Notes: a model not told the origin generated them from the sequence alone. A stretch of 64,000 bases of DNA from Sphingomonadales bacterium (GCA_031408195.1 JANNVL010000082.1:16298-80297), one strand, 5' to 3'. Counted from the first letter of the stretch, positions 30,476 to 52,159 are shown. Made by a program: numbers and translations.

Positions 30476-31540
30476 TTACAGCATCAATGCGCCGTGGTCG
30501 AGATGCGGCAGGACGTGTCGGGCGAACAGGTCTGCTTCTGCGGCGTGCGGATAACCCGAAAGGATGAATGCCTCGATCCCCTCTGCCTGATAGGCGCGCA
30601 GCTTTGCCAGCACCTTATCCGGGTCGCCGACGATGGCGGCTCCGCAACCTGAGCGCGCGCGACCGATCCCGGTCCACAGATTGTCCTCGACATAGCCCTC
30701 ATCGCCCGCCGACGCGCGCAATTCTGCCTGGCGCAGCACGCCGACACTGGTCGAATCGAGCGACTTCGCACGGATCGCGTCGCCGGTTTCGGCATCGAGT
30801 TTCGACAGCAGCCGCGACGCATAGGCCCGCGCTTCGGTCTCGGTTTCGCGTACGATGACATGCGCGCGATAGCCATATTTAAGCGTGCGACCGTGGCGAG
30901 CAGCACGGGCGCGCATGTCACCGATGATCTCGCGCACGGCGGGCATGGTGTCGGGCCACATCAGATAAACGTCGCACCCTTGTGCAGCGGCCTCGCGCGC
31001 GTCTTCCGATAGACCGCCGAAGTATAGCGGTGGACATTTGCCGCTGACCGTCGTCATGCGCGGCGGGTCGATGTCGATCTTATAGTGTTCGCCGTGGGCC
31101 GAGAGATGTTCGCCGTTGAGCAAGGCCTTAAGGATTTTCATGACTTCGAGTGTGCGGGCGTAACGCGGCGCGCTCGCCAGCTTGTCGCCGGGCAGGTCCG
31201 ATGAGATGATGTTCACCGTCATCCGTCCGCCGGTAATCCGGTCGAGCGTCGCAATCTGGCGCGCCAATTGCGGCGGCCAGCTCTCGCCGATGCGGACCGC
31301 CATCAGCAGGCGGATACGGCTGGTGAGCGCAGCAATCGCCGCAGCAAAGGCGGTGGTATCGAGGCCCAACTGATAACCGCTCGGCAACAGGATATTGTCG
31401 AACCCGCCCTTTTCGGCGGTCAGCACGATGTTGCGGCAATGCTCCCACGATGACGCGAGCGCGGGGTCAGGTTGGCCGAGGAATTCATAGTCATCGTCGC
31501 ACAGTGCCGAAAACCAGCTGACTTCGCATTGTCCGCTCAC
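30476..31540 (-). CDS. smoC: LLM-class flavin monooxygenase, sulfoquinovose monooxygenase (SmoC/SquD)-like
   Basis: EVSWFSALCDDDYEFLGQPD..SSWEHC, NIISSD, LYFGG, DVYLMWP and LWTGIGRARSGCGAAIVG closely match my recollection of SmoC. GTG start at 31540 overlaps the AKR stop. Confidence 0.75.
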   Translation of the reverse strand: MSGQCEVSWFSALCDDDYEFLGQPDPALASSWEHCRNIVLTAEKGGFDNILLPSGYQLGLDTTAFAAAIAALTSRIRLLMAVRIGESWPPQLARQIATLDRITGGRMTVNIISSDLPGDKLASAPRYARTLEVMKILKALLNGEHLSAHGEHYKIDIDPPRMTTVSGKCPPLYFGGLSEDAREAAAQGCDVYLMWPDTMPAVREIIGDMRARAARHGRTLKYGYRAHVIVRETETEARAYASRLLSKLDAETGDAIRAKSLDSTSVGVLRQAELRASAGDEGYVEDNLWTGIGRARSGCGAAIVGDPDKVLAKLRAYQAEGIEAFILSGYPHAAEADLFARHVLPHLDHGALML

Positions 31541-32454
31541 GGCAATTTCTCCCCGCGCGAGGCCACCAATACCGCATACCAGCTCTCGCGTGTCCAACTG
31601 ATCTTATAGGCGTCGGCGGCTTCGCGGATGCGGTCGACATGCTGCGACCCGACAATGGGGATGGGGCGGGCGGGGTGCGCCATGATCCAGCTATAGGCGG
31701 CGGCGGTTCGCGATACCCCGTGCGCGTTTGCAACGCTGTCGAGTGCTGCCGCAACTGCCGTCTCGCGCGCATTGGTCGGGTTGGCAATCCGCCCCCCGCC
31801 GAGCGGCGACCACGCCATCGGCGCAAGATCGTATTGCATGGCGATGTCGAGCGTCCTGTCCTGAATAGCGCTTAGTTCGAGCGGCGAAATCTCGGGCTGG
31901 ATCGTCGAGAGCGTGATACCGTGCGCGGGCATAAGCGCTTGCAGCGTGCGGGTCTGCGCGGGGGTGAAGTTCGACACCCCGAAAGCGCCGATCTTGCCAA
32001 GCGCATAGGCTTTCTCGGCAAATTTTGCGATTTCGTGCGGGTGGGTGAGGATGTCGGGGCGGTGGATCTGATAGAGATCGACGCGGGGGATGCCCATTCG
32101 CCGAAGTGAGGCATCAAGCGCGGCGTCGAGATAAGCTGGTGAACTGTCATAGGGCAACGGCGGCATGATCCCGCCCTTGGTTGCCAGCACCATGCGGTCA
32201 CGCAGATGCGGAGCTTCGGCAAAAACTTGCCCCAACAGCGTCTCCGCGTTGCCGAACCCGCCGCTGCCGTCGAAGCCATAGATGTCGGCGGTGTCGAGCA
32301 GGGTGATCCCCGAGTCGAGCGCCGCCTCGACCAGCGCCCGCGCCTCGACAACACTGCGTCCGGCAAAGCGCCACATCCCCCATGCCATCGACGAAATGAC
32401 GATCCCGCTCTTGCCAAGTAGGCGCGTCGCGGGGACGGGGGGAAGGGTGGACAT
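31537..32454 (-). CDS. smoB: Aldo/keto reductase, 6-oxo-glucose reductase (SmoB/SquF)-like
   Basis: WGMWR, DTADIYG, LATKGG, YQIHRPD, GVSNF, MAWSPLGGG; coupled to the smoC-like gene. Confidence 0.7.
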   Translation of the reverse strand: MSTLPPVPATRLLGKSGIVISSMAWGMWRFAGRSVVEARALVEAALDSGITLLDTADIYGFDGSGGFGNAETLLGQVFAEAPHLRDRMVLATKGGIMPPLPYDSSPAYLDAALDASLRRMGIPRVDLYQIHRPDILTHPHEIAKFAEKAYALGKIGAFGVSNFTPAQTRTLQALMPAHGITLSTIQPEISPLELSAIQDRTLDIAMQYDLAPMAWSPLGGGRIANPTNARETAVAAALDSVANAHGVSRTAAAYSWIMAHPARPIPIVGSQHVDRIREAADAYKISWTRESWYAVLVASRGEKLP

Positions 32455-32473
32455 CAGCGTAATAGCTCCGGCG

Positions 32474-32489
32474 TATGACAGCGATGTCT
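32474..32489 (-). promoter_or_regulatory. LacI-type operator, copy A
   Basis: Minus strand reads AGACATCGCTGTCATA, identical to 33621-33636; pseudo-palindrome with central CG; about 20 nt upstream of the AKR ATG. Confidence 0.8.
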
Positions 32490-32514
32490 TATAGGCGAGA
32501 GGGAGGGGGTGGGG

Positions 32515-33519
32515 TCAACCCACCCGCGCCGTACTCGATCTCACCACCAGTTCGTGTTGCAACCGCCGGTGCTCGACCCCGTCGACTTTCTCGAACAACA
32601 AATTGGCTGCCGCAAAGGCAAGATCGCGGGTCGGCTGGCGGATCGTCGTCAACGGAGGCCACACCAGTTGCGCCAGTGGCGTGTCGTCGAACCCCGCCAC
32701 CGACAGATCGTCGGGCAAAGTCAGCCCCTTGCTGTGGGCCACCGTCAGCACACCTGCCGCCATATCGTCATTCGACGCGAAGATTGCGGTCGGGCGGCGG
32801 GGATAGCTGAGCAGTGAGTGCGCCGCGACAACGCCGCTGGCGAAGTCGAATTCTCCGGGGTGGACAAGGCCCGGCTCATATTCGATCCCTGCGCGGTCGA
32901 GCGCGCGGCGGTATCCGAACAGGCGCTGTTCGCTCGCCATATGGTTGGGGTGGCCGACAATGAACCCGATGACCCGGTGGCCCAGATTGATGAGGTGCGT
33001 CGTCATATCGTCCGCCGCCTGTACATCGTCCATATAGACGGACGAGGTCAGCGCATGGTTAGTGCCCGGTGAAATCCGCACGAACGGGATGCCGCGCCGT
33101 TCAAGTTCGGCGAGCACCGGCGCGCAATCGGTGACGGGAGACGACAGGATGATGCCGTCGACATGCGTTTCGTCAATCAGGCCGCCGACTTCCGCTGCGA
33201 TGCTTTCCGAAGCGACGTCGGCGGGCTGAGCGAGCATCCGCACGCCCGCTTCACGACACCGCGCCCAGACGCCTTCCTGAACGGCATGGATGTAATAGGG
33301 CGAGTGGTTGTCATAGATCAGCGCAATCTGGTGCGAGCGTTTGCCCGCCAGCGAGCGTGCCGCCAGGCTGGGGCTGAAGGCCAGCGCGGCCATTGCCGCC
33401 TCGACTTTCGCACGGGTGTCGGCGCGGACATAGCGTTCCTTGTTGAGGACGCGGCTCACCGTTTTGATCGACACGCCCGCCGCGCGCGCCACATCGTTGA
33501 TCGTATTGCGCGATGCCAT
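32515..33519 (-). CDS. LacI-family transcriptional regulator
   Basis: TINDVARAAGVSIKTVSRVLN HTH, IFASNDDMA, SVAGFDD, LTTIRQP. Confidence 0.95.
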   Translation of the reverse strand: MASRNTINDVARAAGVSIKTVSRVLNKERYVRADTRAKVEAAMAALAFSPSLAARSLAGKRSHQIALIYDNHSPYYIHAVQEGVWARCREAGVRMLAQPADVASESIAAEVGGLIDETHVDGIILSSPVTDCAPVLAELERRGIPFVRISPGTNHALTSSVYMDDVQAADDMTTHLINLGHRVIGFIVGHPNHMASEQRLFGYRRALDRAGIEYEPGLVHPGEFDFASGVVAAHSLLSYPRRPTAIFASNDDMAAGVLTVAHSKGLTLPDDLSVAGFDDTPLAQLVWPPLTTIRQPTRDLAFAAANLLFEKVDGVEHRRLQHELVVRSSTARVG

Positions 33520-33620
33520 GTGCGTACCCCTGTGGCGTTGTTGTAACCGCGCAACACCGTCCGGCGCAACGACTCTCGCCCCTTGCGGACCGTATCGATT
33601 CCATGCGAATGCACAATTTC

Positions 33621-33636
33621 AGACATCGCTGTCATA
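33621..33636 (+). promoter_or_regulatory. LacI-type operator, copy B
   Basis: AGACATCGCTGTCATA, 21 nt upstream of the Gfo/Idh/MocA ATG; identical to copy A. Confidence 0.8.
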
Positions 33637-33657
33637 AGCAGTGGTGCGGGGAGGAAG

Positions 33658-34734
33658 ATGACGCTGCGCTACGGCCTTGTCGGCACCGGCATGATGGGCA
33701 TCGAGCACATCAACAATGTCGCGATCACGCCGGGTGCCGAGATCGTGGCGCTCGCCGATCCTGTCGATACGTCGCTGTCCTGGGCAAAGAATGCGCTGGG
33801 CGAAGGTGCCACTCCGCAAGTGTTTTCTAGCGCCGCCGAACTGGCCAACGCAGGTCTCGATGCCGTGATCGTCGCCAGCCCCAACTACACCCACCGCGCG
33901 GTGCTTGAACCGCTGTTCGATGCAGGCCTCAACATCCTGTGCGAAAAACCAGTGGCGACGATCGTCGAGGACGCGCGCTGGATCGTCGAGCGCGCCGCGC
34001 AGTCTCCGGGCATTTTCTGGACCGCGATGGAATATCGCTTCATGCCGCCCGCCGCCGAATTCGTTCGGCAGGTGCACGACGGGCGCACCGGCAAATTGCA
34101 GATGCTCAGCATCCGCGAGCACCGATTCCCCTTCTTGCCGAAGGTCGGAGACTGGAACCGTTTCGCCGAAAACACTGGCGGGACGATGGTCGAGAAATGC
34201 TGCCATTTCTTCGACCTGATGCGCCTGATTATCGGCAGCGAGGCGGTGCGCGTCTTTTGCTCGGGCGCAATGGACGTGAACCATCTCGACGAGACCTACG
34301 ATGGTCGCACACCCGACATAATCGACAACAGCTATACGACAGTGGACTTTGCCAATGGCGTGCGGGCGATGCTTGACCTGTCGATGTTTGCCGAAGGGGC
34401 GGAGAATCAGGAAGAGATTACGGCGGTCGGCGACAAGGCGCGGCTCGATTGCCTGATCCCGGCCGGCGACCTCGTGTTTTCCCCACGCACCGGGTTCATG
34501 CAGCCCAAGGCCGTGACGCGCGAGCATGTTGCGGTCGAGGCCCATGCGCTGAACGCCGGGCACCACCATGGCGCGACCTTTTACCAGCACCAGAAATTCT
34601 GTGCTGCCGTGAAAGGCGAGGGTGCCGTAGAAGTATCTGCGACCGACGGGATGATGGCGGTCGCCATCGGCACCGCCGCCGAAATCAGCGCACGCGAACA
34701 CCGCGTCGTCGAGATGAGTGAATTGGGTTTCTAA
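33658..34734 (+). CDS. Gfo/Idh/MocA-family protein, probable NAD+-dependent sulfoquinovosidase (GH188, SqgA-like)
   Basis: GTGMMG, CEKP, MEYRF, REHRFPFLPKVGDWNRF, GGTMVEKCCHFFDL. Start ATG 33658 after GGGGAGG. Context fits a SQ locus. Confidence 0.75.
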   Translation: MTLRYGLVGTGMMGIEHINNVAITPGAEIVALADPVDTSLSWAKNALGEGATPQVFSSAAELANAGLDAVIVASPNYTHRAVLEPLFDAGLNILCEKPVATIVEDARWIVERAAQSPGIFWTAMEYRFMPPAAEFVRQVHDGRTGKLQMLSIREHRFPFLPKVGDWNRFAENTGGTMVEKCCHFFDLMRLIIGSEAVRVFCSGAMDVNHLDETYDGRTPDIIDNSYTTVDFANGVRAMLDLSMFAEGAENQEEITAVGDKARLDCLIPAGDLVFSPRTGFMQPKAVTREHVAVEAHALNAGHHHGATFYQHQKFCAAVKGEGAVEVSATDGMMAVAIGTAAEISAREHRVVEMSELGF

Positions 34735-34786
34735 TCAAACAAATGGCAACGGCCACGGGCCGCGCCACACGCAGGAAGGACGAAAA

Positions 34787-37177
34787 ATGACCAAGACCCT
34801 GATGATGGCAAGTGTTGCCGGTTTTGCCCTGATTACCGCTGCCCCCGCGCTGGCGCAGGGTGCCGCTCCGGCAGCCGAGGACGGCGCACCTGCCGAAATC
34901 GTCGTCACCGCGCAAAAGCGCACCGAGCGTCTGCAGGACGTGCCGGTTGCGGTCAGCGTCATTTCGGGCGCGTCGCTCGAAGCCAAGGGCGGTGTGAACA
35001 TCGAGAGCGCGCAGTATCTCGTGCCCACCTTGAACTTCCGCAAATCGGGCGCCGCGATCAACCAGTCGCTGTTCCTGCGTGGTGTCGGCACCTCGACTTT
35101 CTCGATCGCCGGTGAGCCTTCGGTTTCGACCGTTGTCGACGGCGTCGTGTTTAGCCGCGCGGGCGAAGCATTTAGCGATTTGGTCGATATCGAGCGGATC
35201 GAAGTGCTGCGCGGGCCGCAGGGCACATTGTTCGGCAAGAACGCGAGCGCGGGCGTGGTCAACATCGTGACCAAAAAGCCGACCAAGGATCTGGAAGGCT
35301 CGGTCGAAGCAAGCTATTTCGACCGCAGCGAGTTCAAGGGACGTGCGGTCATCAACCTGCCGTTTAGCGACACAGCGGGCATCCGCGTCACCGGCTTCTA
35401 CGGTAAGTATAACGGCAATATCTTCAACGCGGCAGCCAATGTGAACCGCAATGTCAACGGTTACGAGCGTTATGGCTTCCGCGCGACCATCGTCGGCGAA
35501 ATTACGCCCGACCTGATCGCCACGATCAGTGCCGACTGGCGCAAAGCGAACGACGAATGCTGTGCGGAAGTGATCGGCGGCATCAACCCGACCGGCACCG
35601 CCATCGCGCCGCCGACTGGCCTCGCGTTGCTCGCGCTGGCCGGCACCAACTTCGCTGGCGATCAGTCGCGCATCATTCGCCAGAACCTGATCACGGCAAG
35701 CCGTCAGACGAGCTATGGCACGTCAGTGCAGCTCGATTGGCAGCTCGGCACGCAAACGGTCACATCGATCACCGCCTTTCGTGCCTATAACGAGCTTGAA
35801 GTTCGCGACGGCGACTTCGTCGATACGGCGTATAACGGTTTGAACCAGTTGCACGACGTAGGGCCGCAGACGGGTCGCACCTTCACGCAGGAATTCCGCC
35901 TGACCTCGCCGGGCGGCCAGTTCTTCAACTATGTGCTGGGTGCCTTCTACAGCTGGGCGAAAACCGACCGCACTTTCACGCGCAACGACATCGTCTGCAA
36001 CTCCACGCCCGCACCGACGGTGCTGATCCCTTGCGGATCGATCGGGACAAACCCGCCGCCAGCATCGACTTTCCCGACGGGCACAGCGACCTTTGGCTCG
36101 GTGTTCAAGAACCTCGCGTTCTTTGGACAGGGCACGATCAATATTGCCGATAACTTCCGCCTGATCGCCGGTCTGCGTTACACGGCGGATCAGCTCGATG
36201 TATCCCTCGGCCGTACGACGGCGCTTGCGGGACCGGGCATCCAACCGAACTTCGACGCGGGCGTGTTCAACAACGGCGCAACCAATCCAGCAGGCGGGTT
36301 TATCGCGGGTCCGTCGAACGGTGTGCCGTTCACGAACAAGGCCACCAGCACCAACTGGTCGGGCAAGGCAGGCGCGCAGTTCGACCTGAGCCGCAACTCG
36401 ACCGTCTACGCAACCTATTCGCGTGGCTATAAGGGGCCGGCGTTCAACATCTTCTTCAACCTGACCGCGACCGGTTCAGGCGTGATCGACCCCGAAACCT
36501 CGGACGCGTTCGAAATCGGCGCGAAGAACACGTTGTTCGGTGGCAAGCTCGTGCTGAACCTCGCGGCCTATTACGCGAAGTACAAGAACTTCCAGGCCAA
36601 CAACCCCGACATCGTCGCGGGCGTGGTGGTGACGCGGTTTACGAACGCGGGCGACATTTCGACCCGCGGCATCGAAGCGGACTTCATCCTCCGTCCGGTG
36701 CGCGACCTCAACATCTCGGGCGGCGTCGCCTATACCGATGCGAAGGTCGATGCGTTCCGCGCACCGCCGGGCGCTGCGGCCACAGCGATCGTGCCGTCGG
36801 GAACGCCGCTCGCCTATGCACCGAAGTTCAAGGCATCACTGGGCGTCGATTACCGCTGGCGCACCGGTGGCAGCATCGACGCACGCTTCGGCGCGCAGGG
36901 ATCGTACCAGTCGAGCCAGTTGTCGCTGTTCGACCCGAATCCAATCGTGCGCGAAGCGGGCAGGATCAAGGCCTATGGGCTTGTCGATCTGTCGGCAGGG
37001 ATCATCAGTGCCGATGATCGCTATAGCCTGACGCTTCAGGTCAAGAACGCGTTCAACCAGAGCTTTGCCGCGGCCATCACCAACGGTGGACCGGGCGGTG
37101 CCTACCGCTACCTGATCCCGCGCGAGGCTGACCGGTATTTCGGCGTGACCGGCAAGATCAGCTTCGGCGGTCGCTGA
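34787..37177 (+). CDS. TonB-dependent receptor
   Basis: Signal peptide, TonB box EIVVTAQKR, LRGVGT, DIERIEVLRGPQGTLFGKN, terminal beta strand. Start ATG 34787. Confidence 0.95.
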   Translation: MTKTLMMASVAGFALITAAPALAQGAAPAAEDGAPAEIVVTAQKRTERLQDVPVAVSVISGASLEAKGGVNIESAQYLVPTLNFRKSGAAINQSLFLRGVGTSTFSIAGEPSVSTVVDGVVFSRAGEAFSDLVDIERIEVLRGPQGTLFGKNASAGVVNIVTKKPTKDLEGSVEASYFDRSEFKGRAVINLPFSDTAGIRVTGFYGKYNGNIFNAAANVNRNVNGYERYGFRATIVGEITPDLIATISADWRKANDECCAEVIGGINPTGTAIAPPTGLALLALAGTNFAGDQSRIIRQNLITASRQTSYGTSVQLDWQLGTQTVTSITAFRAYNELEVRDGDFVDTAYNGLNQLHDVGPQTGRTFTQEFRLTSPGGQFFNYVLGAFYSWAKTDRTFTRNDIVCNSTPAPTVLIPCGSIGTNPPPASTFPTGTATFGSVFKNLAFFGQGTINIADNFRLIAGLRYTADQLDVSLGRTTALAGPGIQPNFDAGVFNNGATNPAGGFIAGPSNGVPFTNKATSTNWSGKAGAQFDLSRNSTVYATYSRGYKGPAFNIFFNLTATGSGVIDPETSDAFEIGAKNTLFGGKLVLNLAAYYAKYKNFQANNPDIVAGVVVTRFTNAGDISTRGIEADFILRPVRDLNISGGVAYTDAKVDAFRAPPGAAATAIVPSGTPLAYAPKFKASLGVDYRWRTGGSIDARFGAQGSYQSSQLSLFDPNPIVREAGRIKAYGLVDLSAGIISADDRYSLTLQVKNAFNQSFAAAITNGGPGGAYRYLIPREADRYFGVTGKISFGGR

Positions 37178-37185
37178 TTCGAATG

Positions 37186-37225
37186 AGTTGCCAGCGGGCA
37201 CCCAAAAGCTGCTCCGCTGGCAACT
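37186..37225 (+). terminator. Intergenic stem-loop after the TonB receptor (terminator or RNA stabiliser)
   Basis: 12-bp perfect stem AGTTGCCAGCGG/CCGCTGGCAACT with no strong U tract. Confidence 0.5.
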
Positions 37226-37249
37226 TCCGATTAAGGGGCTGAAAGCAGC

Positions 37250-38137
37250 ATGGTGCGACCATCGTTCCTCCTTGATCGGACCGACGCTAAGCTGTTCGTA
37301 TGCGGTCGCACAAACGGAACAATACCCGTTCTGATACTGGCAGCATTGCTCGGTATCGACGCGGATGTTGCGCGGGCCGAAGCACCGGTTGATCCTGCGA
37401 GGATGGCAACAGAAAGTTGCGATCCGCAGGCTGCATCGCAATCACCAACGGGCGTCTATGTGCCCGCAATACGACCCCCCGAAACATCCTCCGGCACCAC
37501 GCGATATCGCCCGCCGGGCGACTGGCCATGGCTCTGCCGATATCGTGCAGACAATCAGGCCGCCCTGACTCTTGCTCCGCCGGAAATCGTCTTCTACGGG
37601 GATTCAATCACCGAAAACTGGGCAAAGATCGACCCCGCTTTTTTCAGCCGCTCCGCCATCAATCGAGGCATCAGTGGTCAAACTTCTGCCCAGCTCCTCC
37701 TGCGGTTTTATCAGGATGTCGTCGCCCTGCGTCCTCGCAAGGTTCACATTGTCGTGGGAACCAACGATATCGCCGGCAATCCGGGCGCTCTCGACGCGCA
37801 AAGCTACAAGAACAACATGCTTGCCATGGTCGACCTTGCACGGATCCATCGTATCAAGGTCATCCTGGGCAGCGTTCCTCCGGCGGCACGCTTTCCTTGG
37901 CGGAGCGAAGTGCCAGCGCTGGTCAAATTCGAACCGGTGCGCGAAATCCAGGACTTGAACCTCTGGTTGCAGAGGCTTGCGAAGGAACGCAATCTCATGT
38001 TCGTTAACTATCACGACGCAATGGCCGATGTCGACGGCGCGATGCAGACCGCCTTGACGCGAGACGGGGTTCACCCAAACGCCAAAGGATATGAGGTGAT
38101 GCGCCGAATGGCAGTGACAGCGGTGGCGAAGCCATGA
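37250..38137 (+). CDS. SGNH/GDSL hydrolase (esterase/lipase), probably exported; start uncertain
   Basis: Blocks GDSIT, RGISG, GTND and DGVHP. ATGA overlap with the MFS gene. Confidence 0.88.
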   Translation: MVRPSFLLDRTDAKLFVCGRTNGTIPVLILAALLGIDADVARAEAPVDPARMATESCDPQAASQSPTGVYVPAIRPPETSSGTTRYRPPGDWPWLCRYRADNQAALTLAPPEIVFYGDSITENWAKIDPAFFSRSAINRGISGQTSAQLLLRFYQDVVALRPRKVHIVVGTNDIAGNPGALDAQSYKNNMLAMVDLARIHRIKVILGSVPPAARFPWRSEVPALVKFEPVREIQDLNLWLQRLAKERNLMFVNYHDAMADVDGAMQTALTRDGVHPNAKGYEVMRRMAVTAVAKP

Positions 38138-39408
38138 ATGCAAGTCGGCAAGATGAGCTTGGTCGGCACGCGCCGTGCGAGAGCCGGGGTAGGGCGAGCA
38201 TCCTCTCCCCGGCGCGCGCATGGACTTTGTTCGCGCTGCTCTGCGTCGCGGGCATTTTCAATCTTATGGATCGCCCGATCATTGCGATCCTGAAACCCGA
38301 TATGTCGGCCGATCTCGGCTGGACCGATGCCGAATTCGGGCGATTGGCGCTTATCACGCAACTCGCCGCCGCGTCCTCGTTCCTGTTCACCGGCTGGTTG
38401 ATCGACAAATTGGGCATCTGGCGCTCGATGGTCGCGGGTGTTTCAGCGTGGAGTTTCGCAGCGATGGCGCACGGCTGGGCGTTTGCCGGATGGCAGGTCG
38501 TTGCCGCGCGCGTTGGCCTCGGCGTCACCGAAGCGATGCAGACGCCGCTGACGGTCAAGACTGCCGCCACATTATTCCCGAAAGAACGCCGCTCGCTCGC
38601 GCTCGGCATCAATACGCTGATTGGCAGCGCGGGGACGATCCTGTTGCCGTTCTTCATCCCCATTATGGCTGTCACAATGGGCTGGCGCGGCGCGTTGCTG
38701 TTTGCAGGCATCGGCGGATTCGTAACGCTTGCCGCTTGGCTCGCGGTCGCGCGCGGGGTGAAGTTCGACGATGCGGCGGAGGACGAGCACCTCGATTTCT
38801 CCGACGATGGCAAGCCCTATGGCCCGATCCTGCGCGAGCGGCGGACATGGGCGATCGTCATTGCCAAGGCGCTGTCGGATTCGACCTTCTGGCTGCTGAC
38901 GTTCTGGCTGCCCGACTTTTACCGCAAGACCTTCGACCTTTCGACGTCCGAACTGGCCATTCCGATGGCGCTTGCCTTTGCAGGGTCTGCTATCGGCGGG
39001 CTGACGGCGGGGATCGTGTCGACGCGGCTGATCGCGCAGGGGTGGGATGTGCTGCGCGTTCGTCGCGTCGTTATGCTCGTTTCCGCCCTGATCGTCGTGC
39101 CGGTGCCCTTCGTGCTGCAACTGAACAGCATTTGGCCCATCGCCTTTATGATGGCGGTTGTGCTCGCCGGACACCAGGGATTCTCGTTGTCGATCTTTGG
39201 CCTCATTACCGATGTTGTGCCGCGCTCGAAGGTTGGGCGGGTGACCGCGTTCGGTGCGTTCTGCGGCAATGTCGCGGGCGGGTTACTGGTCTATGGCGTC
39301 GGCCTCGCTCTAACAGCGGGTTATAGCTTCACGCCGTTCTTCATGTTTGCGGCAGTGTCGTATCTGCTTGCAATCGGCTGGCTACGGATGGTTATGCCGC
39401 GCGGGTGA
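38134..39408 (+). CDS. MFS transporter (ExuT/ACS-like sugar-acid type)
   Basis: About 12 hydrophobic segments; MDRPII, GWLIDKLG, RVGLGVTEA, FPKERRSLA, FWLPDF. Confidence 0.85.
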   Translation: MNASRQDELGRHAPCESRGRASILSPARAWTLFALLCVAGIFNLMDRPIIAILKPDMSADLGWTDAEFGRLALITQLAAASSFLFTGWLIDKLGIWRSMVAGVSAWSFAAMAHGWAFAGWQVVAARVGLGVTEAMQTPLTVKTAATLFPKERRSLALGINTLIGSAGTILLPFFIPIMAVTMGWRGALLFAGIGGFVTLAAWLAVARGVKFDDAAEDEHLDFSDDGKPYGPILRERRTWAIVIAKALSDSTFWLLTFWLPDFYRKTFDLSTSELAIPMALAFAGSAIGGLTAGIVSTRLIAQGWDVLRVRRVVMLVSALIVVPVPFVLQLNSIWPIAFMMAVVLAGHQGFSLSIFGLITDVVPRSKVGRVTAFGAFCGNVAGGLLVYGVGLALTAGYSFTPFFMFAAVSYLLAIGWLRMVMPRG

Positions 39409-40454
39409 CCGAACGACGCAGCCTGCCGCTTGCCGCCGACCTTTATGGCGATCTGCTCGACGTTGCGCCTGCCGGGCCGGTCGGGCTGACTGCCTATTTC
39501 CCCGGGCTTGTCCTGACCATCGTGGCGGCGCTGGCGGCGGCTTATCTGTCCGAACATTACGGCGCGCCGATCATGCTGATGGGCTTGCTCATCGGCTTGG
39601 CGTTCAATTTCGCCAATGCCGATGTGCGCCTGCATCCCGGACTTGGGTTTGCCTCGAAGACCCTGTTGCGCTGGGGCATTGTGCTGGTCGGGTTGCAGGT
39701 GACTTTCGGCGAGATTGCGAGCCTCGGAGCACCTGCTTTCGCCGCCATTGCGGCAATGGTCGCGCTAGTGACGCTCAGCGGCACGGTCATGTCGAAATGG
39801 ATCGGACGCGGAGCCGCCTTTGGGACATTGGCAGGGGGCGCGGTTGCCATCTGCGGCGCGTCGGCCGCACTCGCGCTGTCGAGCGTGCTCGGTGAAAAGC
39901 GCACGTCGCAGGCGCAATTGACGCTGGTGCTGGTGGCGGTGTCGGCGGCGAGCGCGCTGGCGATGTCGCTCTATCCAGTGTTGGCGCAGTTGCTCGATCT
40001 AACCGACCGGCAGGCCGGGTTCCTGATGGGCGCGTCGATCCATGACGTCGCGCAAGCGCTGGGCGCGGGCTATTCCTACTCGCCCGAGGCCGGTGCGACG
40101 GCGACAGTCGTGAAGCTGACGCGCGTGGCATTGTTAGCACCCGCGCTTGCAGTCGTGGCCTACGCCTATCGCGACGAAGCAGGCGTGAAGCGCGGCGGCG
40201 TTGGCGTACCGTGGTTCGTGCTCGGCTTCCTGGGCCTGTGTGCCCTGCATTCGCTGGTCGCGCTGCCCCAGCCTGTGCTCGACGCGGCCAAACCAACTGC
40301 GACCGCGCTGCTGGTGCTCGCGGTGACTGCGACGGGCATCCGATCACCGATGAACCTGCTGCTCGAACAGGGGTGGCGCGCATCTATGCCAGTGATCGCG
40401 GCGACAATCGTATCGTTCGTGCTCGCGCTCGGTGCCGCGCTGATTCTCGTCTAA
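39405..40454 (+). CDS. YeiH/TauZ-family putative sulfite/sulfate exporter
   Basis: LLRWGIVLVG, GGAVAICGASAA, GASIHDVAQA, VVKLTRV, VPWFVLGF. GTGA overlap with the MFS gene. Confidence 0.85.
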   Translation: MTERRSLPLAADLYGDLLDVAPAGPVGLTAYFPGLVLTIVAALAAAYLSEHYGAPIMLMGLLIGLAFNFANADVRLHPGLGFASKTLLRWGIVLVGLQVTFGEIASLGAPAFAAIAAMVALVTLSGTVMSKWIGRGAAFGTLAGGAVAICGASAALALSSVLGEKRTSQAQLTLVLVAVSAASALAMSLYPVLAQLLDLTDRQAGFLMGASIHDVAQALGAGYSYSPEAGATATVVKLTRVALLAPALAVVAYAYRDEAGVKRGGVGVPWFVLGFLGLCALHSLVALPQPVLDAAKPTATALLVLAVTATGIRSPMNLLLEQGWRASMPVIAATIVSFVLALGAALILV

Positions 40455-40539: not shown

Positions 40540-40646
40540 ACGGCCCGCCTACCCGAGCCTCGGGACAGAAAAAGGGGCCGGTTGAGTCGGTCATCTTTCG
40601 CACCCTCGATATTCACTCGAAGCCGGTGCGCCGGAGCGGAGATTTT

Positions 40647-42230
40647 ATGGCCTCGTTCAAACGCTTTACCAAAGTCATGCTGTCGGGCGCGTCGTTCGCG
40701 GCGCTCGCGGCCTGTGGTGCCAGCGATATTGCTTCGCCAGGGACTGGCGGCAATGTCACGATCAACAATGTCACGCCTGCCCCGACGCCGACCCCCACGC
40801 CTACGCCGACCGGCGTGACCCCCGCTGGCGGTTGCCCGACGATTGCGTCGGATCAGGGCACGATTACTGGCACGACCGGTACCTATCGCGTCTGCCGTCT
40901 GCCCAATTTGATCACGTCGTCGATCAGCCTGCCCAAGGTTGCCGGGTTGCTTTACGAGCTCAACGGTCGCGTCAATGTTGGTTGCGATGGCGGCTTTGCA
41001 GCCCCGACCGCCGCTGCACCAGTGGCCTCTACAACGATCGGTTGCGGCAATCTGACTGCCGATACGGCAGTGACCCTGACGATTGCCCCGGGCGTCATCC
41101 TTTATGGATCGACCGGACAGTCATGGCTCGCCGTCAATCGCGGCAACCAAATCCAGGCCGTCGGCACGGCCGCAGCCCCGATCGTGTTCACGAGCCGCGA
41201 CAATGTTCTTGGCATCAATGATGACACATCGCAGGGGCAATGGGGCGGGGTTGTCCTGATGGGCCGCGGCGTCGTCACTGACTGCAACGTCGGCTCGACC
41301 GCCGCGAACACCTGCGAGCGCGACACCGAGGGCGCAGCCGATCTCGCGCGCTTCGGCGGCACGAACAATGCGTACAACGCGGGCCGGATGAGCTTTGTCC
41401 AGATCCGCTATTCGGGGTTCGTGCTCGGCGCGAACCGCGAGCTTCAGGCCTTGACGACCGAAGGTATCGGCACAGGCACAGTCCTGAACAATATCCAGTC
41501 GCACAACAGCTCTGACGACGGCGCGGAGTTCTTCGGCGGCGCGATCAACATGAAATACTATATTGCGACGGGGGCCGATGACGACAGCCTCGACGTTGAC
41601 ACCGGCGCGCAGATGAATGTCCAGTATGCGCTGCTCCTGCCACGGGCGACGAAGGGCGATGCGCTGTTCGAAATCGACAGCAACGGACTCGAAACCGACC
41701 TGCCGCGCACGCGCCTCAACGTCGCCAACTTTACCGCGATCCAGTCAGTAGCGAGCGCCGACAACGAGGCGAACGATCTTGCCGCCGCACTTTTCCGTGG
41801 CAATTCGGACACGACGCTGGTGAACGGCCTGATCATTACGCCGAACAACGAATGTATCCGGATGAACGGGTCCGGGACCACGCCGGTCACTCTGGCAGTC
41901 CGGTCGGTGGCGATGCAGTGTAACGCGACCAAATATCTCGGGTCGGGCTCGCTTACCGCAGCGCAGGTCGCCGCCGCATTTGCGACCGGCACGAATAACA
42001 ACAACGACAGTTTCACAGCGTCGCTCGCCAACGTTTTCATCAACGGCGCGAACGAAACCGCCGTGGTCGGGACCGATCCGAAGACAATCAATGCGTTCTT
42101 CGACACGACGACATGGGCCGGTGCGGTGCGAAACAGCACCGACACCTGGTACGCCGGATGGACCTGCAACAGCGCGACAGTGAATTTTGGTGCGGGTTCG
42201 ACGTCGTGCACGTCGCTGCCCACGACCTGA
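40647..42230 (+). CDS. Exported lipoprotein, ElpS-like by synteny
   Basis: Lipobox LAAC, PAPTPTPTPTPT linker, repetitive Gly/Asn/Asp beta-rich body with DDG/DDD motifs. First gene before the TBDR and gsp genes. Start ATG 40647. Confidence 0.7.
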   Translation: MASFKRFTKVMLSGASFAALAACGASDIASPGTGGNVTINNVTPAPTPTPTPTPTGVTPAGGCPTIASDQGTITGTTGTYRVCRLPNLITSSISLPKVAGLLYELNGRVNVGCDGGFAAPTAAAPVASTTIGCGNLTADTAVTLTIAPGVILYGSTGQSWLAVNRGNQIQAVGTAAAPIVFTSRDNVLGINDDTSQGQWGGVVLMGRGVVTDCNVGSTAANTCERDTEGAADLARFGGTNNAYNAGRMSFVQIRYSGFVLGANRELQALTTEGIGTGTVLNNIQSHNSSDDGAEFFGGAINMKYYIATGADDDSLDVDTGAQMNVQYALLLPRATKGDALFEIDSNGLETDLPRTRLNVANFTAIQSVASADNEANDLAAALFRGNSDTTLVNGLIITPNNECIRMNGSGTTPVTLAVRSVAMQCNATKYLGSGSLTAAQVAAAFATGTNNNNDSFTASLANVFINGANETAVVGTDPKTINAFFDTTTWAGAVRNSTDTWYAGWTCNSATVNFGAGSTSCTSLPTT

Positions 42231-42252
42231 TCGCAAACCACCTCAACACCGG

Positions 42253-42280
42253 CGGGGGCAGCTTCCTGGGGCTGCCCCCG
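42253..42280 (+). terminator. Intergenic stem-loop between lipoprotein and TonB receptor
   Basis: CGGGGGCAGC-TTCCTGGG-GCTGCCCCCG, 10-bp stem followed by TATTT. Confidence 0.55.
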
Positions 42281-42309
42281 TATTTGCACCCGAAATTGGG
42301 GGATTGAAA

Positions 42310-45000
42310 ATGTTGAAGCCGCTGCACCTCGCGCGGATATTGCTGGCATCGTCGGCGCTGGCAGCACCTTCGTTTGCGTTTGCGTTCGCGCAAGCCACCG
42401 CACCGGCGACGACCACGCCACCTGCTGACGCTCCGGCGACTGCCGAATCCGCTCCCGAAGCGCCCGCGCAGGAAGAGGTCGAAATTTCAGCGCCCGGTGC
42501 GAACGAGATTGTCGTGACGGGGCGGCGCGACCGTAACATTGCCAAGACATCGGATCAGGTCGTGTCAGTGCTCGGTGCCGCTGAAATCGCGCGCACAGGC
42601 GACGGCAACATCGCGGGTGCGCTCGGTCGCGTGACCGGCCTCAGCGTCGTCGGCAGCGGATTCGTCTATGTGCGCGGTCTTGGCGACCGCTATTCGCTGG
42701 CGCTGCTCAACGGGTCGCCTTTGCCCAGCCCCGAGCCGCTTCGCCGGGTCGTGCCGCTCGACATTTTCCCGAGCGGCGTTATCGCGTCGTCGCTTGTCCA
42801 GAAAAGCTATTCGGTGAACTACCCCGGCGAGTTCGGCGGCGGGGTCATCAACCTGACCACCCGCGCCGTCCCGCGCGAACCGTTCTTCAATGTCGGTATC
42901 GGCATGTCGGGCGACAGCGAAACGACAGGCAACATCGGCTATACCTATTATGGTGCGCGCTGGGACAATCTCGGCTTCGACAACGGCGTCCGCAACACGC
43001 CCGCGCCGCTCGCCGCTTTCCTCGCGAGTGGCGCGCGGACCAGCTCGGGCACCGTCAACACCTCGGCGATCGCCAATGGCCTCGTCACCGGCCAGAACGG
43101 CGTGATCCAGCGCTGGCAGGTAGCACCCAATTTTTCGGCGAACATTACCGGCGGGCGATCCTTTCCGCTTGGCACCGGGGAACTCGGCGTGATCGCCGCG
43201 GTGGGGTACAACAACAAATACACGACGCGGCAGGCGCTGCGTCAGGCGTCGCTCAGCGCCGATGTCTCGACGCTGGAGTCGAACTTCAACGAGGTCAACA
43301 CCGACCAGCGTATCGTCGTCAACGGTTTGCTCGGCCTCGGCTATGAGTGGGACGATCACAAGATCCGCATCACCAATCTCTATATCCGCGACACGATCAA
43401 GCAGGCGCGGCTGTCGCTCGGCAACCGTCAGGGAACCGGTGTCGATTACCAGCAACAGAAGACTGCTTGGTACGAACGCCAGCTGATCAACACGCAATTC
43501 GTCGGCGAGTATAAGCTGGCCGATGGGCTTCGGCTCGACCTGCGTGCGGCTTATGCCAATTCGCAGCGCGAAGCGCCCGGCGAGCTGTTCCTCGAGTATG
43601 TCCGCACCAATTCCACCGCCGATCCCCTCGGCCGGTTTTTCGTCAACCGTCTCAACAACGGCAATGGCGGTGATGCGCGCATCACTTATTCGGACCTGAA
43701 TGAAGATCTGTATTCGGCCAGTGCCGACCTCAGCTACCGTATCAATGACCGGCTGAGCGCGACCATCGGCGGGGCGTGGGGCGACACCAAGCGCACCAGT
43801 TCGCGTCGCGATTTCCAGTTTCAGGCACCCGGCAATTTCCCGAGCGGCGTCGGCCTATTGCGGCCCGACCTGCTGCTCGGCGCGAACGTCATCAATGCGT
43901 TCCGGATCGCGCTCATCGAAACCGACGAGGGCAACCCCGCGTTTTTTGCCCGGCTGAAGAATTATGCCGGCTATGCAAAGTTCAATGCCAAGTTCACTGA
44001 CACGCTCAGCCTCGATGCCGGTGTCCGCTATGAAAGCGCGACACAGACGGTGACACCGGTGCAGGTCTTTACGGTGCCGGGTGCATCGACCGCCGGAACC
44101 AGCCTCAAGCGCAACTATTGGTTGCCTGCCGCAACGCTGACCTGGGAGGTCGATAACGGGATGCAGGTGCGCCTCAGTGCTTCCAAAACCATCGCTCGCC
44201 CGCAGTTCCGCGAACTCATCAACCAGCCCTATTTCGACCCCGATTCCAACCGTCAATATCGCGGAAATCCGCTGCTGGTCGATAGCCAGCTCTACAATGC
44301 CGAAGCGCGCTTCGAATGGTATTTCGCGCCCGAACAGCGACTGTCGGTTTCGGGCTTTTACAAGAAAATCGACAAGCCAATCGAAGCGTTCATTACTGGC
44401 GGCGACCTCGTCACCTCGTTCGCCAACGCGCCGACGGCGACCTTGTACGGGGCCGAGGTCGAGTTCCAGAAGAATTTCAATCTTGACGGGCTGTTCAAGG
44501 CGGGTGGGCTGTCCGAACGGCGCATCGTGCTGACCGCGAATTACACCTACACCAAGTCGAAAATCAAAGTGGCAACGGGCGATACGACTTCGGTGTTCGG
44601 GGCGTTTTCGTCCAGAGCGTCGGACTATTTCCGCGATGGCGGGCCGCTGACCGGCCAGTCGGACCATATCGCCAATTTGCAGATCGGGTTGGAACACCCC
44701 GACCGGCTATCGCAACAGACGATCCTGCTCGGCTATTCGAGCAACCGCGTCATCAGCCGCGGCCTCAACGGTTCGGTTCCACAGCCCGACGTCATCGAGC
44801 GCCCCGGCTTTCGCCTGGATTTTGTCGCGCGTGAGGGGATTGAAGTACTCGGCAAGGAAATCGAACTGAAGTTCGAGGCACGCAATATCACCGGCCAGCG
44901 CCACGAGGAGTTTCAGCGGTCGGGTAACAACCGCATCGATATCAACAGCTATGCAGTGGGCACGACGCTGGCGCTGTCTGCGACGGTCAAGTTCCAATAG
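42310..45000 (+). CDS. TonB-dependent receptor
   Basis: Signal peptide, EIVVTG, YVYVRGLGDRYS, PLDIFP, NPLL/NAEARFEWY barrel motifs, terminal VKFQ. Start ATG 42310. Confidence 0.92.
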   Translation: MLKPLHLARILLASSALAAPSFAFAFAQATAPATTTPPADAPATAESAPEAPAQEEVEISAPGANEIVVTGRRDRNIAKTSDQVVSVLGAAEIARTGDGNIAGALGRVTGLSVVGSGFVYVRGLGDRYSLALLNGSPLPSPEPLRRVVPLDIFPSGVIASSLVQKSYSVNYPGEFGGGVINLTTRAVPREPFFNVGIGMSGDSETTGNIGYTYYGARWDNLGFDNGVRNTPAPLAAFLASGARTSSGTVNTSAIANGLVTGQNGVIQRWQVAPNFSANITGGRSFPLGTGELGVIAAVGYNNKYTTRQALRQASLSADVSTLESNFNEVNTDQRIVVNGLLGLGYEWDDHKIRITNLYIRDTIKQARLSLGNRQGTGVDYQQQKTAWYERQLINTQFVGEYKLADGLRLDLRAAYANSQREAPGELFLEYVRTNSTADPLGRFFVNRLNNGNGGDARITYSDLNEDLYSASADLSYRINDRLSATIGGAWGDTKRTSSRRDFQFQAPGNFPSGVGLLRPDLLLGANVINAFRIALIETDEGNPAFFARLKNYAGYAKFNAKFTDTLSLDAGVRYESATQTVTPVQVFTVPGASTAGTSLKRNYWLPAATLTWEVDNGMQVRLSASKTIARPQFRELINQPYFDPDSNRQYRGNPLLVDSQLYNAEARFEWYFAPEQRLSVSGFYKKIDKPIEAFITGGDLVTSFANAPTATLYGAEVEFQKNFNLDGLFKAGGLSERRIVLTANYTYTKSKIKVATGDTTSVFGAFSSRASDYFRDGGPLTGQSDHIANLQIGLEHPDRLSQQTILLGYSSNRVISRGLNGSVPQPDVIERPGFRLDFVAREGIEVLGKEIELKFEARNITGQRHEEFQRSGNNRIDINSYAVGTTLALSATVKFQ

Positions 45001-45012: not shown

Positions 45013-45052
45013 CAGTCACAATCTTGTCGCATGTCGCCAGTGTATCCGTCAT
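45013..45052 (+). promoter_or_regulatory. Pho-box-like half-sites upstream of gspC
   Basis: CAGTCAC (45013), TTGTCGC (45024) and CCGTCAT (45046) on an 11-bp register. Confidence 0.5.
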
Positions 45053-45093
45053 ACAGCGACGCTGGTCAGCGGTTAGAAGGGCATCGGCGCAAC

Positions 45094-45912
45094 ATGCAAT
45101 TCAAGCTCGGCGCGTGGCCGGTCCGTGCCATAAGCGGCAAGTCGGGGTTTCCTGCCGCGACAATTGCCGATGTGCTTCTGATTTTTGCACTGGCGGGTGC
45201 GGCGGTGATGTTGTTCTGGGCGCTGTTCCGTCCGCTCGGACCTGTCGGCTCCTGGCAGGCAGTGCGTGGTGTACCGGTGGTGTCCGATCCGATGCTGCTC
45301 ACCCGCTTCGACCCCTTCTTCCGCAGCAGCGGGGCAAGCGGACCGACCACTGTCACGTCGCTGGCGCTGAAACTCTTTGGCATCCGCGTCGATCAGGCAA
45401 TGGGGCGCGGATCGGCAATTATCGCGACACCCGATGGCGTGCAGAGCAGCTATGCGGTCGGTGACGAGATCGTGCCGGGCGTGAAACTCAAGTCGGTGGC
45501 TTTCGACTATATCGTGCTCGAACGCGGCGGTGTGGACGAGCAATTGTTCCTCGACCAGTCGGTTGCCGCTCCCGTTGCCGGTGCTGCGGCTGCGGCACCC
45601 GGCGCAACGCCCGCGCCAGCCACTACGGCGCAATTGTCACCGCAAGCCCTTGCCGAGGGTATCGCCTTTGCGCCACGGAGCGAGAAGGGTGCCGCCCCCG
45701 GCCTCGTTGTGGCTCCAAAGGGAAGCGGCAATTTGTTCGCGCAATCCGGGTTGGTGCAGGGAGACGTCGTGACGCAAATCAACGGACAGCCGGTTCGGTC
45801 GGTCGATGATATCGCCAATGCGGTTGTGCGGGTGCCGCCGGGCGGTCGCCTGAATTTCATGATCGAGCGCAACGGCACGACGATGAATGTGTCCGCAGGA
45901 GCACCCAAGTGA
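45094..45912 (+). CDS. gspC: Type II secretion protein C with PDZ domain
   Basis: Single TM, HR domain (LFGIR...GSAII...Y.VGDEI), C-terminal PDZ (GLVQGDVVTQING). Start ATG 45094. Confidence 0.8.
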   Translation: MQFKLGAWPVRAISGKSGFPAATIADVLLIFALAGAAVMLFWALFRPLGPVGSWQAVRGVPVVSDPMLLTRFDPFFRSSGASGPTTVTSLALKLFGIRVDQAMGRGSAIIATPDGVQSSYAVGDEIVPGVKLKSVAFDYIVLERGGVDEQLFLDQSVAAPVAGAAAAAPGATPAPATTAQLSPQALAEGIAFAPRSEKGAAPGLVVAPKGSGNLFAQSGLVQGDVVTQINGQPVRSVDDIANAVVRVPPGGRLNFMIERNGTTMNVSAGAPK

Positions 45913-49552: not shown

Positions 49553-49562
49553 GGTGCAACTA

Positions 49563-49686
49563 CTCCTCCCCGGACCGGGGAGGTGGCAGGCGAAGCCTGA
49601 CGGAGGGGGTTCTCCGCGCGAGACGAACCAAGTGTGGCGAGCCCCCTCCACCACTTCGTGGTCCCCCTCCCCGTTCCGGGGAGGAA
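49563..49686 (+). repeat. ~124-bp dispersed intergenic hairpin repeat (REP/MITE-like), copy 2
   Basis: Homologous to the reverse complement of 11037-11159; ends GGGGAGGAA just before the gspF GTG. Confidence 0.9.
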
Positions 49687-49689
49687 TAA

Positions 49690-51810: not shown

Positions 51811-52159
51811 GAACGGCTTTACCCTCATAGAAATGCTGGTCGCGCTGGCGATCTTCAGCCTGTCGGCGCTCGCTTTGCTGCGGCTGGAGGGTGCAACATT
51901 GTTCAGCACGCAGCGGCTTGCCGACACCACCGTCTCACAGATCGTGGCGCGCAATCTGGCGGTGAACCTGCTCACCGATCCTCGCCCGCCTGCGTTCGGG
52001 ACCGATCAGGGCGAAGTGACGAATGCGGGCGCAACATGGCGCTGGATCCGCGAGACCAAGCGCACCGACGACGTCCGCATCGTGCGGATCGACCTCGCCG
52101 TCACCGATGCTGCAGGTCGCCCGATGACGCGGCTCTCGCTGGCAAGGGCGGTGGAATGA
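51800..52159 (+). CDS. gspI: Minor pseudopilin I
   Basis: GFTLIEMLVALAIF after GTG 51800; ARNL...W.W motif. Confidence 0.88.
   Translation: MSRKNGFTLIEMLVALAIFSLSALALLRLEGATLFSTQRLADTTVSQIVARNLAVNLLTDPRPPAFGTDQGEVTNAGATWRWIRETKRTDDVRIVRIDLAVTDAAGRPMTRLSLARAVE

Follow-up and report, generated by a model that had tools for sequence, protein, structure and literature searches.

Sulfoquinovose (SQ), a sulfosugar of plants and algae, is produced at about 10 billion tonnes per year, and the sulfur cycle has a major branch in its turnover. We examined a 64,000-nucleotide stretch of DNA from a Sphingomonadales bacterium (GCA_031408195.1 JANNVL010000082.1:16298-80297), which is referred to throughout as the window and whose first letter is position 1 for all coordinates given here. 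At positions 30476-40454 the window carries eight genes that, judged by their sequences, very probably make up a LacI-repressed locus for SQ catabolism of the sulfolytic monooxygenase (sulfo-SMO/sulfo-ASMO) type, and their host is a Sphingomonas-like alphaproteobacterium. The pathway itself is already known. Its chemistry and core genes are of the type described for Agrobacterium tumefaciens and for Novosphingobium aromaticivorans, and its glycosidase gateway, a member of glycoside hydrolase family 188 (GH188), is of the type described by Kaur et al. 2023.

The smo cluster of A. tumefaciens C58 (Atu3277-3285; Sharma et al. 2022, PMC8795539) has in common with the window locus the monooxygenase SmoC (54% identity), an adjacent SmoB-like aldo-keto reductase (AKR), a dedicated sulfoquinovosidase and a dedicated importer, as well as the chemistry, in which SQ is converted to 6-oxo-glucose and sulfite, and 6-oxo-glucose is converted to glucose. 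However, the smo cluster includes the flavin reductase SmoA, for which no counterpart was found among the annotated open reading frames (ORFs) of the window. Its sulfoquinovosidase is the GH31 enzyme SmoI rather than a GH188 NAD+-dependent enzyme, and import relies on the binding protein SmoF and the ATP-binding cassette (ABC) transporter SmoEGH, whereas the window encodes a TonB-dependent receptor (TBDR) and a symporter of the major facilitator superfamily (MFS). Beyond the smo genes, the window has an SGNH esterase and a YeiH-type putative exporter, and its genes are arranged in two divergent operons predicted to be under LacI control.

The squ genes of N. aromaticivorans (sulfo-ASMO; Liu et al. 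2021, as summarized in PMC9594981 and PMC12890257) also come from a member of the Sphingomonadales and include the monooxygenase SquD and the reductase SquF, with no linked flavin reductase noted in those summaries. According to the same summaries they were found by way of YihQ, a GH31 sulfoquinovosidase, whereas the window uses GH188. In the Novosphingobium loci that we surveyed, identity to the window proteins is 74-79% for the monooxygenase and 59-64% for the AKR, and LacI and TBDR genes lie alongside.

The GH188 enzyme SqgA (Kaur et al. 2023, PMC10755693; PDB 8QC2/3/5/6/8) shares with the window protein its fold, the NAD+ Rossmann domain, the SQ-contacting and sulfonate-binding residues compared below, and the setting of an SQ cluster free of GH31. 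The SqgA enzymes that have been assayed are those of Flavobacterium, Arthrobacter and Cryobacterium, whereas the window protein is from a sphingomonad and is known from sequence. The family list in that study includes several Sphingomonas GH188 proteins of 358 amino acids, and a cluster from Sphingomonas sp. Leaf17 is drawn in its Fig. 5c (PMC10755693). The sulfo-SDO cluster of Alteromonas macleodii (PMC12780224) offers a further parallel, as it contains a TBDR that is a proposed SQ importer and provides for export of sulfur oxyanions. However, it relies on an Fe/2-oxoglutarate dioxygenase, a sulfite dehydrogenase and a sulfate transporter, where the window has a flavin monooxygenase and a YeiH protein.

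Core enzymes and related loci

The eight genes form two divergent units, with a luciferase-like monooxygenase (LLM), the AKR and the LacI protein encoded on the minus strand and the five genes from GH188 to YeiH on the plus strand. Pfam assigned each of the eight proteins to a family with E-values between 1e-16 and 1e-57 (for example LLM to Bac_luciferase, 2.6e-49; AKR to Aldo_ket_red, 3.4e-50; the SGNH protein to Lipase_GDSL_2, 2.7e-25), in agreement with the families named in a preliminary description of this DNA.

The LLM gene (30476-31540, minus strand) has a GTG start and encodes 354 amino acids. The best matches of its product in the PDB are RoSmoC (7OH2, 373 bits, 1.6e-110) and AtSmoC (7OLF, 369 bits), structures that belong to assayed SQ monooxygenases (PMC8795539), while the alkanesulfonate enzymes MsuD and E. 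coli SsuD score 230 and 207 bits, respectively. In pairwise comparisons the protein is 54% identical to both SmoCs versus 37-39% to SsuD and MsuD. It carries the SmoC-type motifs EVSWFSALCxDDY, ISSDxPG with a short loop, LMWP and WTGIGRARSGCGAA, which differ in SsuD and MsuD, and its residues W195, R225, H227, Y330 and H332 correspond to the sulfonate constellation W206/R236/H238/Y341/H343 of SmoC (PMC8795539). Its closest relatives are proteins from Sphingomonas metagenome-assembled genomes (92-94% identity). By sequence, therefore, the LLM groups with SmoC-type SQ monooxygenases, and the grouping with SsuD/MsuD that had been named beforehand as the outcome speaking against this assignment did not occur. 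We annotate it as a predicted SmoC/SquD-type FMNH2-dependent sulfoquinovose monooxygenase.

The AKR gene (31537-32454, minus strand) overlaps the LLM gene and is thus translationally coupled to it. Its product, a putative 6-oxo-glucose reductase of the SmoB/SquF type, has its best PDB match in SmoB (7BBZ/7BBY, 169 bits, 1.2e-48). The catalytic tetrad Asp71-Tyr76-Lys104-His151 aligns with that of SmoB (D-x4-Y in LLDTADIYG, K in LATKGG and H in QIHRPD), although this tetrad is generic to AKRs.

The first gene of the plus-strand unit (33658-34734) encodes a 358-residue protein with the N- and C-terminal GFO_IDH_MocA domains of Pfam. It matches FlSqgA (8QC2/8QC8) with 356 bits (2.7e-105) and ArSqgA (8QC3) with 340 bits (1.2e-100). 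The sulfonate triad is present as R156, L160 and K162 within EHRFPFLPK, equivalent to R166, L170 (a backbone contact) and K172 of ArSqgA. Five catalytic or SQ-hydroxyl contacts are also kept, with K97 (in EKP), Y126, E179, H183 and H303 corresponding to ArSqgA K107, Y136, E189, H193 and H321; this comparison leaves out Glu163 of ArSqgA. A GxGxxG Rossmann motif occupies residues 8-13 and there is no signal peptide, which places the enzyme in the cytoplasm, so that the glycoside must reach that compartment. On these residues and scores the protein is a bona fide member of GH188, predicted to be an NAD+-dependent sulfoquinovosidase of the SqgA type, as the preliminary description had supposed from its fold. 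An inositol-type dehydrogenase was considered and rejected, since the best match to a Gfo/Idh/MocA protein outside GH188, an inositol dehydrogenase, reaches only about 80 bits versus 356 and the sulfonate triad is present.

We also scanned one genome per species for relatives of the LLM, which gave 576 proteins. The 80 loci with the best matches were kept, and these derive almost entirely from Sphingomonadales, with a few from Caulobacterales and Rhizobium. Of the 58 with at least 8 kb of flanking sequence, 57 have an AKR gene together with the LLM gene, 55 a TBDR gene, 49 a LacI gene, 34 an MFS gene, 23 a YeiH gene and one an SGNH gene. A sulfoquinovosidase gene of GH31 (41 loci) or GH188 (15 loci) is present in all but two, and the two types never occur together; the identity of the GH31 genes was confirmed by Pfam in two example loci. 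The alternation of GH31 and GH188 has been described for SQ clusters (Kaur et al. 2023, PMC10755693), and we count its recurrence here in favor of SQ as the substrate. The combination of monooxygenase, reductase and sulfoquinovosidase seen in the window is thus kept in 56 of the 58 related loci.

In at least ten related loci a gene for a GlpD-like glycerol-3-phosphate dehydrogenase abuts the locus, a neighbor that fits SQ-glycerol (SQGro) as the natural substrate. The GlpD-like gene is located downstream of the LLM gene in L045, L038, L027, L064 and L069, and beside the YeiH gene in L058, L016, L068 and L076. It is absent from the window.

The locus had been described as hidden behind generic annotations, and this is fair: at the homologous locus of S. 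paeninsulae, whose LLM is 89.5% identical, the RefSeq product names are generic only. Strain YZ-8 of that species has the locus minus SGNH. A few kilobases from that SQ locus, which is on a plasmid (L088), positions 14505-19474 hold a second LLM oxidoreductase, a TauD/TfdA dioxygenase, and an MFS protein and TBDRs of their own. These may be additional genes for organosulfonates.

Regulation and gene arrangement

The LacI-family gene (32515-33519, minus strand) encodes a protein with the LacI helix-turn-helix and the sugar-binding domain Peripla_BP_1/3 of Pfam, and inverted-repeat sites lie at both promoters, as befits a member of this family. The 16-nucleotide sequence TATGACAGCGATGTCT occurs as two exact copies in inverted orientation. 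One, O1, is at 32474-32489 on the plus strand, about 19 nucleotides upstream of the AKR start. The other, O2, is at 33621-33636 on the minus strand, in the divergent region between the LacI and GH188 genes and 21 nucleotides upstream of the GH188 start. Both copies therefore end about 20 nucleotides before a start codon, which is where a LacI-type roadblock would act. With up to three mismatches allowed, the pattern has three matches in the 64 kb versus 0.25 expected, the third being a site with three mismatches, and none of 100 shuffled sequences reached three matches. The twin operators reported earlier are thus both exact and rare.

The sequence TATGACAGCGATGTCT is an imperfect form of the palindrome TGACAGCGCTGTCA, which is the consensus across loci. 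In ten related loci, among them L001, L004-L007, L009, L012, L043 and L088, the motif recurs at both positions. An MFS gene has a third copy at its start in L004 (position 2995), L006 (2996) and L088 (5060), and this MFS appears to be part of the same regulon. The gene in question has a different orientation, and its product is 35-43% identical to the window MFS. Overall, the positions and conservation of the motif support a single LacI regulon spanning both operons.

The coupling of genes within each unit, claimed in the preliminary description, can be read directly in the sequence. The AKR stop overlaps the LLM start in a GTGA at 31537-31540, the SGNH stop overlaps the MFS start in an ATGA at 38134-38137, and the MFS stop overlaps the YeiH start in a GTGA at 39405-39408. 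Three start codons differ from the earlier calls, which had taken the longest ORF. The LLM gene starts at the GTG at 31540 and not at 31597, based on the 354-residue length of homologues and on the sequence itself. The GH188 gene starts at the ATG at 33658, with GGAGGAAG just before it, and the TBDR gene starts at the ATG at 34787, where the signal peptide follows. With the two latter corrections the GH188 and TBDR genes are 52 nucleotides apart and do not overlap.

A stem-loop with a perfect stem of eleven base pairs is located directly 3' of the TBDR stop (37185-37227, plus strand). Its minimum free energy is -34.5 kcal/mol (z = -4.4), and none of 200 shuffled sequences was as stable. Because it lacks a T-run it is not a classical terminator. 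It may be a transcript-processing or attenuation element that gives the receptor gene and the genes downstream of it different transcript levels. A scan for promoter and terminator consensus sequences yielded counts at the level of shuffled sequence, and no conclusion was drawn from it.

Uptake, export and the receptor-linked esterase

How aquatic bacteria take up SQ substrates is largely unknown, and their deacylating enzymes are unidentified, according to a 2026 review (PMC13436972). A TBDR of A. macleodii, MASE_18030, is induced 107-fold by SQ (Ma et al. 2025, PMC12780224). The TBDR of the window (34787-37177, plus strand; Pfam Plug and beta-barrel, with a signal peptide) is our proposed importer of SQ glycosides across the outer membrane. 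Within the PDB it shows similarity to siderophore receptors, at the level of the plug only. The MFS gene (38134-39408, plus strand; MFS_1) encodes a transporter of the anion:cation symporter type that matches TIGR00893 with 105 bits, below the cut-off of the model. Its sole relative in the PDB is the D-galactonate:H+ symporter DgoT (6E9N), an analogy that suits an anionic sugar as cargo, and we propose it as the inner-membrane importer of SQGro or SQ. The locus contains neither an ABC importer nor a binding protein, so that uptake by TBDR and MFS rather than by an ABC system, as first suggested, agrees with the gene set.

The last gene of the unit (39405-40454, plus strand) encodes a membrane protein of PF03601 (Cons_hypoth698; 194.7 bits, 2.2e-57). 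Its earlier designation as a YeiH-type exporter holds for the family, to which NCBI gives the name of putative sulfate exporter. It does not extend to the curated model TIGR00698 ('YeiH family putative sulfate export transporter'), which the protein matches with 113.1 bits, below the cut-off of 232.6. The putative sulfate exporters TauZ and SuyZ of taurine and sulfolactate dissimilation loci are comparable in being membrane proteins encoded beside a desulfonating enzyme; we take TauZ to be a member of PF03601, and we know of no transport assay for either protein. TauZ has been described as the sulfate exporter of a desulfonation pathway (PMC5320631). For the window protein, a role in exporting sulfite or sulfate is thus a reasonable proposal.

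Between the receptor and the MFS transporter lies the gene for an SGNH/GDSL protein (37250-38137, plus strand). The blocks GDSITE, GISGQTS, GTNDI and DGVHPN, which supply the Ser, Gly, Asn and His of the family (GDS, G, GxND and DxxH), are intact and invariant within a clade of close relatives. The N-terminus resembles a signal peptide, after which comes a disordered linker rich in Pro, Ser and Thr, and two cysteines are invariant in the clade. Together, these features point to an exported enzyme. In the predicted structure the catalytic domain is confident, and the top Foldseek matches are uncharacterized Bacteroides proteins.

Wherever the genes of clade members (48-93% identity) were examined, they directly follow a TBDR gene. 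One related locus (L081) has the gene order of the window over its visible part, from LacI to YeiH, and a 2.3-kb fragment (L082) has a matching order. In a Novosphingobium sulfo-SMO locus (L045) the SGNH gene is found alongside GH31, LacI, AKR and LLM genes, and in L083/L084 a pair of SGNH genes precedes MFS and YeiH genes. Three short contigs (L086, L169 and L170) carry the TBDR-SGNH pair, which in L169 is followed by an Abhydrolase_3 esterase gene. On the contig of GCA_031430555.1 (L085, positions 1-7259), the TBDR and SGNH genes are followed, in this order, by those for a PF00920 dehydratase, a PF03328 aldolase and a MalK-type ABC ATPase. As PF00920 and PF03328 are the signature pair of the sulfo-Entner-Doudoroff (sulfo-ED) pathway (PMC9594981), here the receptor-esterase pair looks to be attached to a sulfo-ED rather than a sulfo-SMO locus. 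A metagenome scan with the clade alignment and generic patterns returned only relatives of 40-54% identity and no new clade members, and none of the 80 metagenome loci with these distant relatives carries SQ genes.

Compared with the related loci, the esterase is the only unusual component. Tentatively, it may be a periplasmic or surface deacylase that acts on the cargo of the receptor, either a lyso-sulfolipid or an acylated SQ glycoside. In a more specific and rather doubtful form of this proposal, the TBDR-linked SGNH protein would be the missing bacterial 'sulfolipase', which deacylates sulfoquinovosyl monoacylglycerol (SQMG) or receptor-imported acyl-SQ glycosides to SQGro. Some observations count against such roles. 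Of the 58 related genome loci, 57 lack the SGNH gene, the nearest solved relatives are uncharacterized Bacteroides acylhydrolases, and the next relatives are acetyl-specific enzymes (sialate O-acetylesterase, PAF acetylhydrolase and acetylxylan esterase), which argues against a long-chain lipase.

The same observations suit a different explanation, in which the core is an SQ locus and the SGNH gene is an inserted passenger or encodes a general carbohydrate O-acetyl esterase with no role on sulfolipid or SQ glycosides. We regard this as a serious contender, though it falls short of an even chance. Besides the absence of the gene from nearly all related loci and the acetyl esterases that are its nearest characterized structural relatives, one locus (L005) has the TBDR-MFS-YeiH order of the window without SGNH, and the GC content of the gene (58.3%) is lower than that of its neighbors (62-66%). 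A passenger, however, is harder to reconcile with the overlap of the SGNH stop and the MFS start, by which the gene is co-translated with the operon, with the recurrence of the clade directly after a TBDR gene at all places examined and in at least three different SQ-type arrangements, and with the fact that its distant relatives are never found beside SQ genes.

Alternatives, proposed pathway and surroundings

Several findings weigh against reading the locus as an SQ pathway. The MFS and YeiH proteins both fall below curated NCBIfam cut-offs, and to our knowledge transport of sulfite or SQ has been demonstrated for no member of either family. The AKR is a mere 11-19 bits nearer to SmoB than to YdhF-type AKRs (7TWZ, 158 bits; 4R9O, 157 bits; YdhF, 150 bits). 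Because this margin is narrow, its assignment leans on the GTGA overlap and on the adjacency of AKR and LLM genes in 57 of the 58 loci. The initial designation as SmoB/SquF thus stands as far as the best solved relative is concerned, but the margin over YdhF is small and a SmoB-like 6-oxo-glucose reductase is only marginally supported by sequence. The residues of the SmoC sulfonate constellation are identical in aligned MsuD and SsuD, where they have been tied to stabilization of the peroxyflavin (PMC8795539). Since the constellation is common to these enzymes it is necessary rather than discriminating, and no proof of SQ specificity.

In addition, neither an FMN_red nor a Flavin_Reduct protein was identified in the locus or elsewhere among the annotated window ORFs, so the monooxygenase would depend on an unlinked enzyme. 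To call the locus complete, as was done at first, is therefore slightly too strong, as the obligatory NAD(P)H:flavin reductase (SmoA/SsuE) is absent from it. However, the N. aromaticivorans sulfo-ASMO cluster is likewise without a flavin reductase in the summary given by PMC9594981, where a housekeeping reductase is assumed to supply FMNH2. As published sulfo-ASMO clusters lack the gene, a flavin reductase is not strictly defining.

We think it quite improbable that the locus degrades a related sulfonated or 6-modified glycoside (such as a beta-linked SQ glycan, an acylated derivative of SQ or a different 6-sulfo sugar) and that the substrate of the LLM is not SQ. The LLM shares only 54% identity with the assayed SmoCs, there is no SQ-bound SmoC structure to define specificity residues (PMC8795539), and GH188 enzymes act on alpha as well as beta SQ glycosides (PMC10755693), but the sulfonate triad and the sugar-hydroxyl contacts of the window GH188 are all kept, and in 41 loci that are otherwise syntenic the place of GH188 is taken by GH31 sulfoquinovosidase-type genes. 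Moreover, the Novosphingobium SquD/SquF pair has been assayed on SQ, as summarized in PMC9594981, and the LLM-AKR pairing is common to the surveyed Novosphingobium loci. Least credible is an ssu/msu-like pair that scavenges sulfur from alkanesulfonates and merely lies beside unrelated sugar-uptake genes, for although generic annotation pipelines call the LLM an alkanesulfonate monooxygenase and the SsuD equivalog TIGR03565 is its top NCBIfam match, we reject it on a score (263.5 bits) half the cut-off of that model (518.2) and on the identities to SsuD/MsuD and SmoC given above, with SsuE, SsuABC and a sulfur-starvation regulator all missing, a sugar repressor of the LacI family whose operators lie at both operons present instead, and a sulfoquinovosidase gene linked in 56 of 58 loci.

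For the SQ pathway that we favor, we infer substrates, transport directions, the effector and the roles of the SGNH, MFS and YeiH proteins from the families, conserved catalytic and sulfonate-binding residues, couplings, operators and synteny that the sequence displays. The TBDR would bring sulfolipid-derived SQ glycosides across the outer membrane, namely SQGro and possibly mono-acylated lyso-sulfolipid, from which the exported SGNH enzyme, acting at the cell surface or in the periplasm, might strip a remaining acyl group. The DgoT-like MFS symporter would then move the anionic glycoside to the cytoplasm, where the GH188 enzyme would free SQ in an NAD+-dependent reaction. The SmoC-type enzyme would convert SQ and O2 to 6-oxo-glucose and sulfite, using FMNH2 from a flavin reductase encoded elsewhere, and the coupled AKR would reduce 6-oxo-glucose to glucose. 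Sulfite, or sulfate after its oxidation, would be exported by the YeiH-family protein. LacI would bind O1 and O2 and let go when an SQ-derived effector is present.

Glucose would enter the Entner-Doudoroff route through Glk, Zwf, Edd and Eda, which are encoded 16-21 kb away. These genes, which the preliminary description had expected to receive the glucose, are indeed in the window, where they form a compact minus-strand cluster outside the locus (9456-14440, with zwf at 12980-14440, edd at 11173-12978, glk at 10064-11032 and eda at 9456 to about 10067) and have the Pfam domains G6PD, ILVD_EDD, Glucokinase and KDPG aldolase. The stretches between these genes showed no pgl.

The locus is flanked upstream by a DUF1800/DUF1501 pair and downstream by a lipoprotein gene, a second TBDR gene and a type II secretion cluster. 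As these genes are unrelated to it, the boundaries at 30476 and 40454 hold. The lipoprotein (with a LAAC lipobox, a (TP)n linker and a beta-helix domain) and the second TBDR, of 937 amino acids, are encoded at 40626-45000 on the plus strand. Both are kept after YeiH in L081 (53% and 61% identity), where the lipoprotein homologue matches PF28492 (Beta_helix_4); in L005 there is only a weak match to the lipoprotein (31%). The pair was considered as part of the locus and left out, having no LacI operator and, apart from its conservation in L081, only that weak match in L005. It may be a second, independent uptake unit. The type II secretion cluster (45031-56021, plus strand) encodes GspC, D, E, F, pseudopilins, J, K, M and N, and its adjacency is also seen in L081.

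Further features of the window lie outside these regions. A gene at 21417-23198 (minus strand) encodes a protein of unusual architecture, in which a flavin amine oxidase domain is joined to a cyclic-nucleotide-binding domain at the C-terminus, and adjoins a gene for an M2 (angiotensin-converting-enzyme-like) peptidase at 19539-21404. The segment 16000-20000 has a GC content of 57-59% versus 63% for the whole window and includes genes for a CHASE2-EAL protein (16148-18499) and an alpha/beta hydrolase (18714-19481). This segment may be acquired DNA.

In the papers examined we found no mention that the TBDR is nearly universal in the pathway as it occurs in sphingomonads and caulobacters, nor any description of the LacI operator or of the TBDR-SGNH pairing, and the supplementary text of Kaur et al. 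does not mention TonB, PF00593, PF13472, PF03601 or PF07690. With the window, a Sphingomonas lineage of soil or freshwater joins the organisms for which complete mineralization of SQ to glucose and sulfite is predicted. The version of the pathway in sphingomonads and caulobacters is centered on a TBDR (55 of 58 loci), with a GH31 or GH188 gateway and a LacI protein with a definable operator, a signature that can be used to annotate loci that are labeled generically in RefSeq. The TBDR and the DgoT-like MFS protein are testable candidates for uptake of SQ glycosides without an ABC transporter in Gram-negative bacteria, as is the TBDR-linked SGNH clade for removal of acyl groups from sulfolipid. 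If the proposed deacylation is true, the TBDR-SGNH pair would be a previously unrecognized front end of the pathway, by which sphingomonads would feed directly on partly degraded thylakoid sulfolipid.

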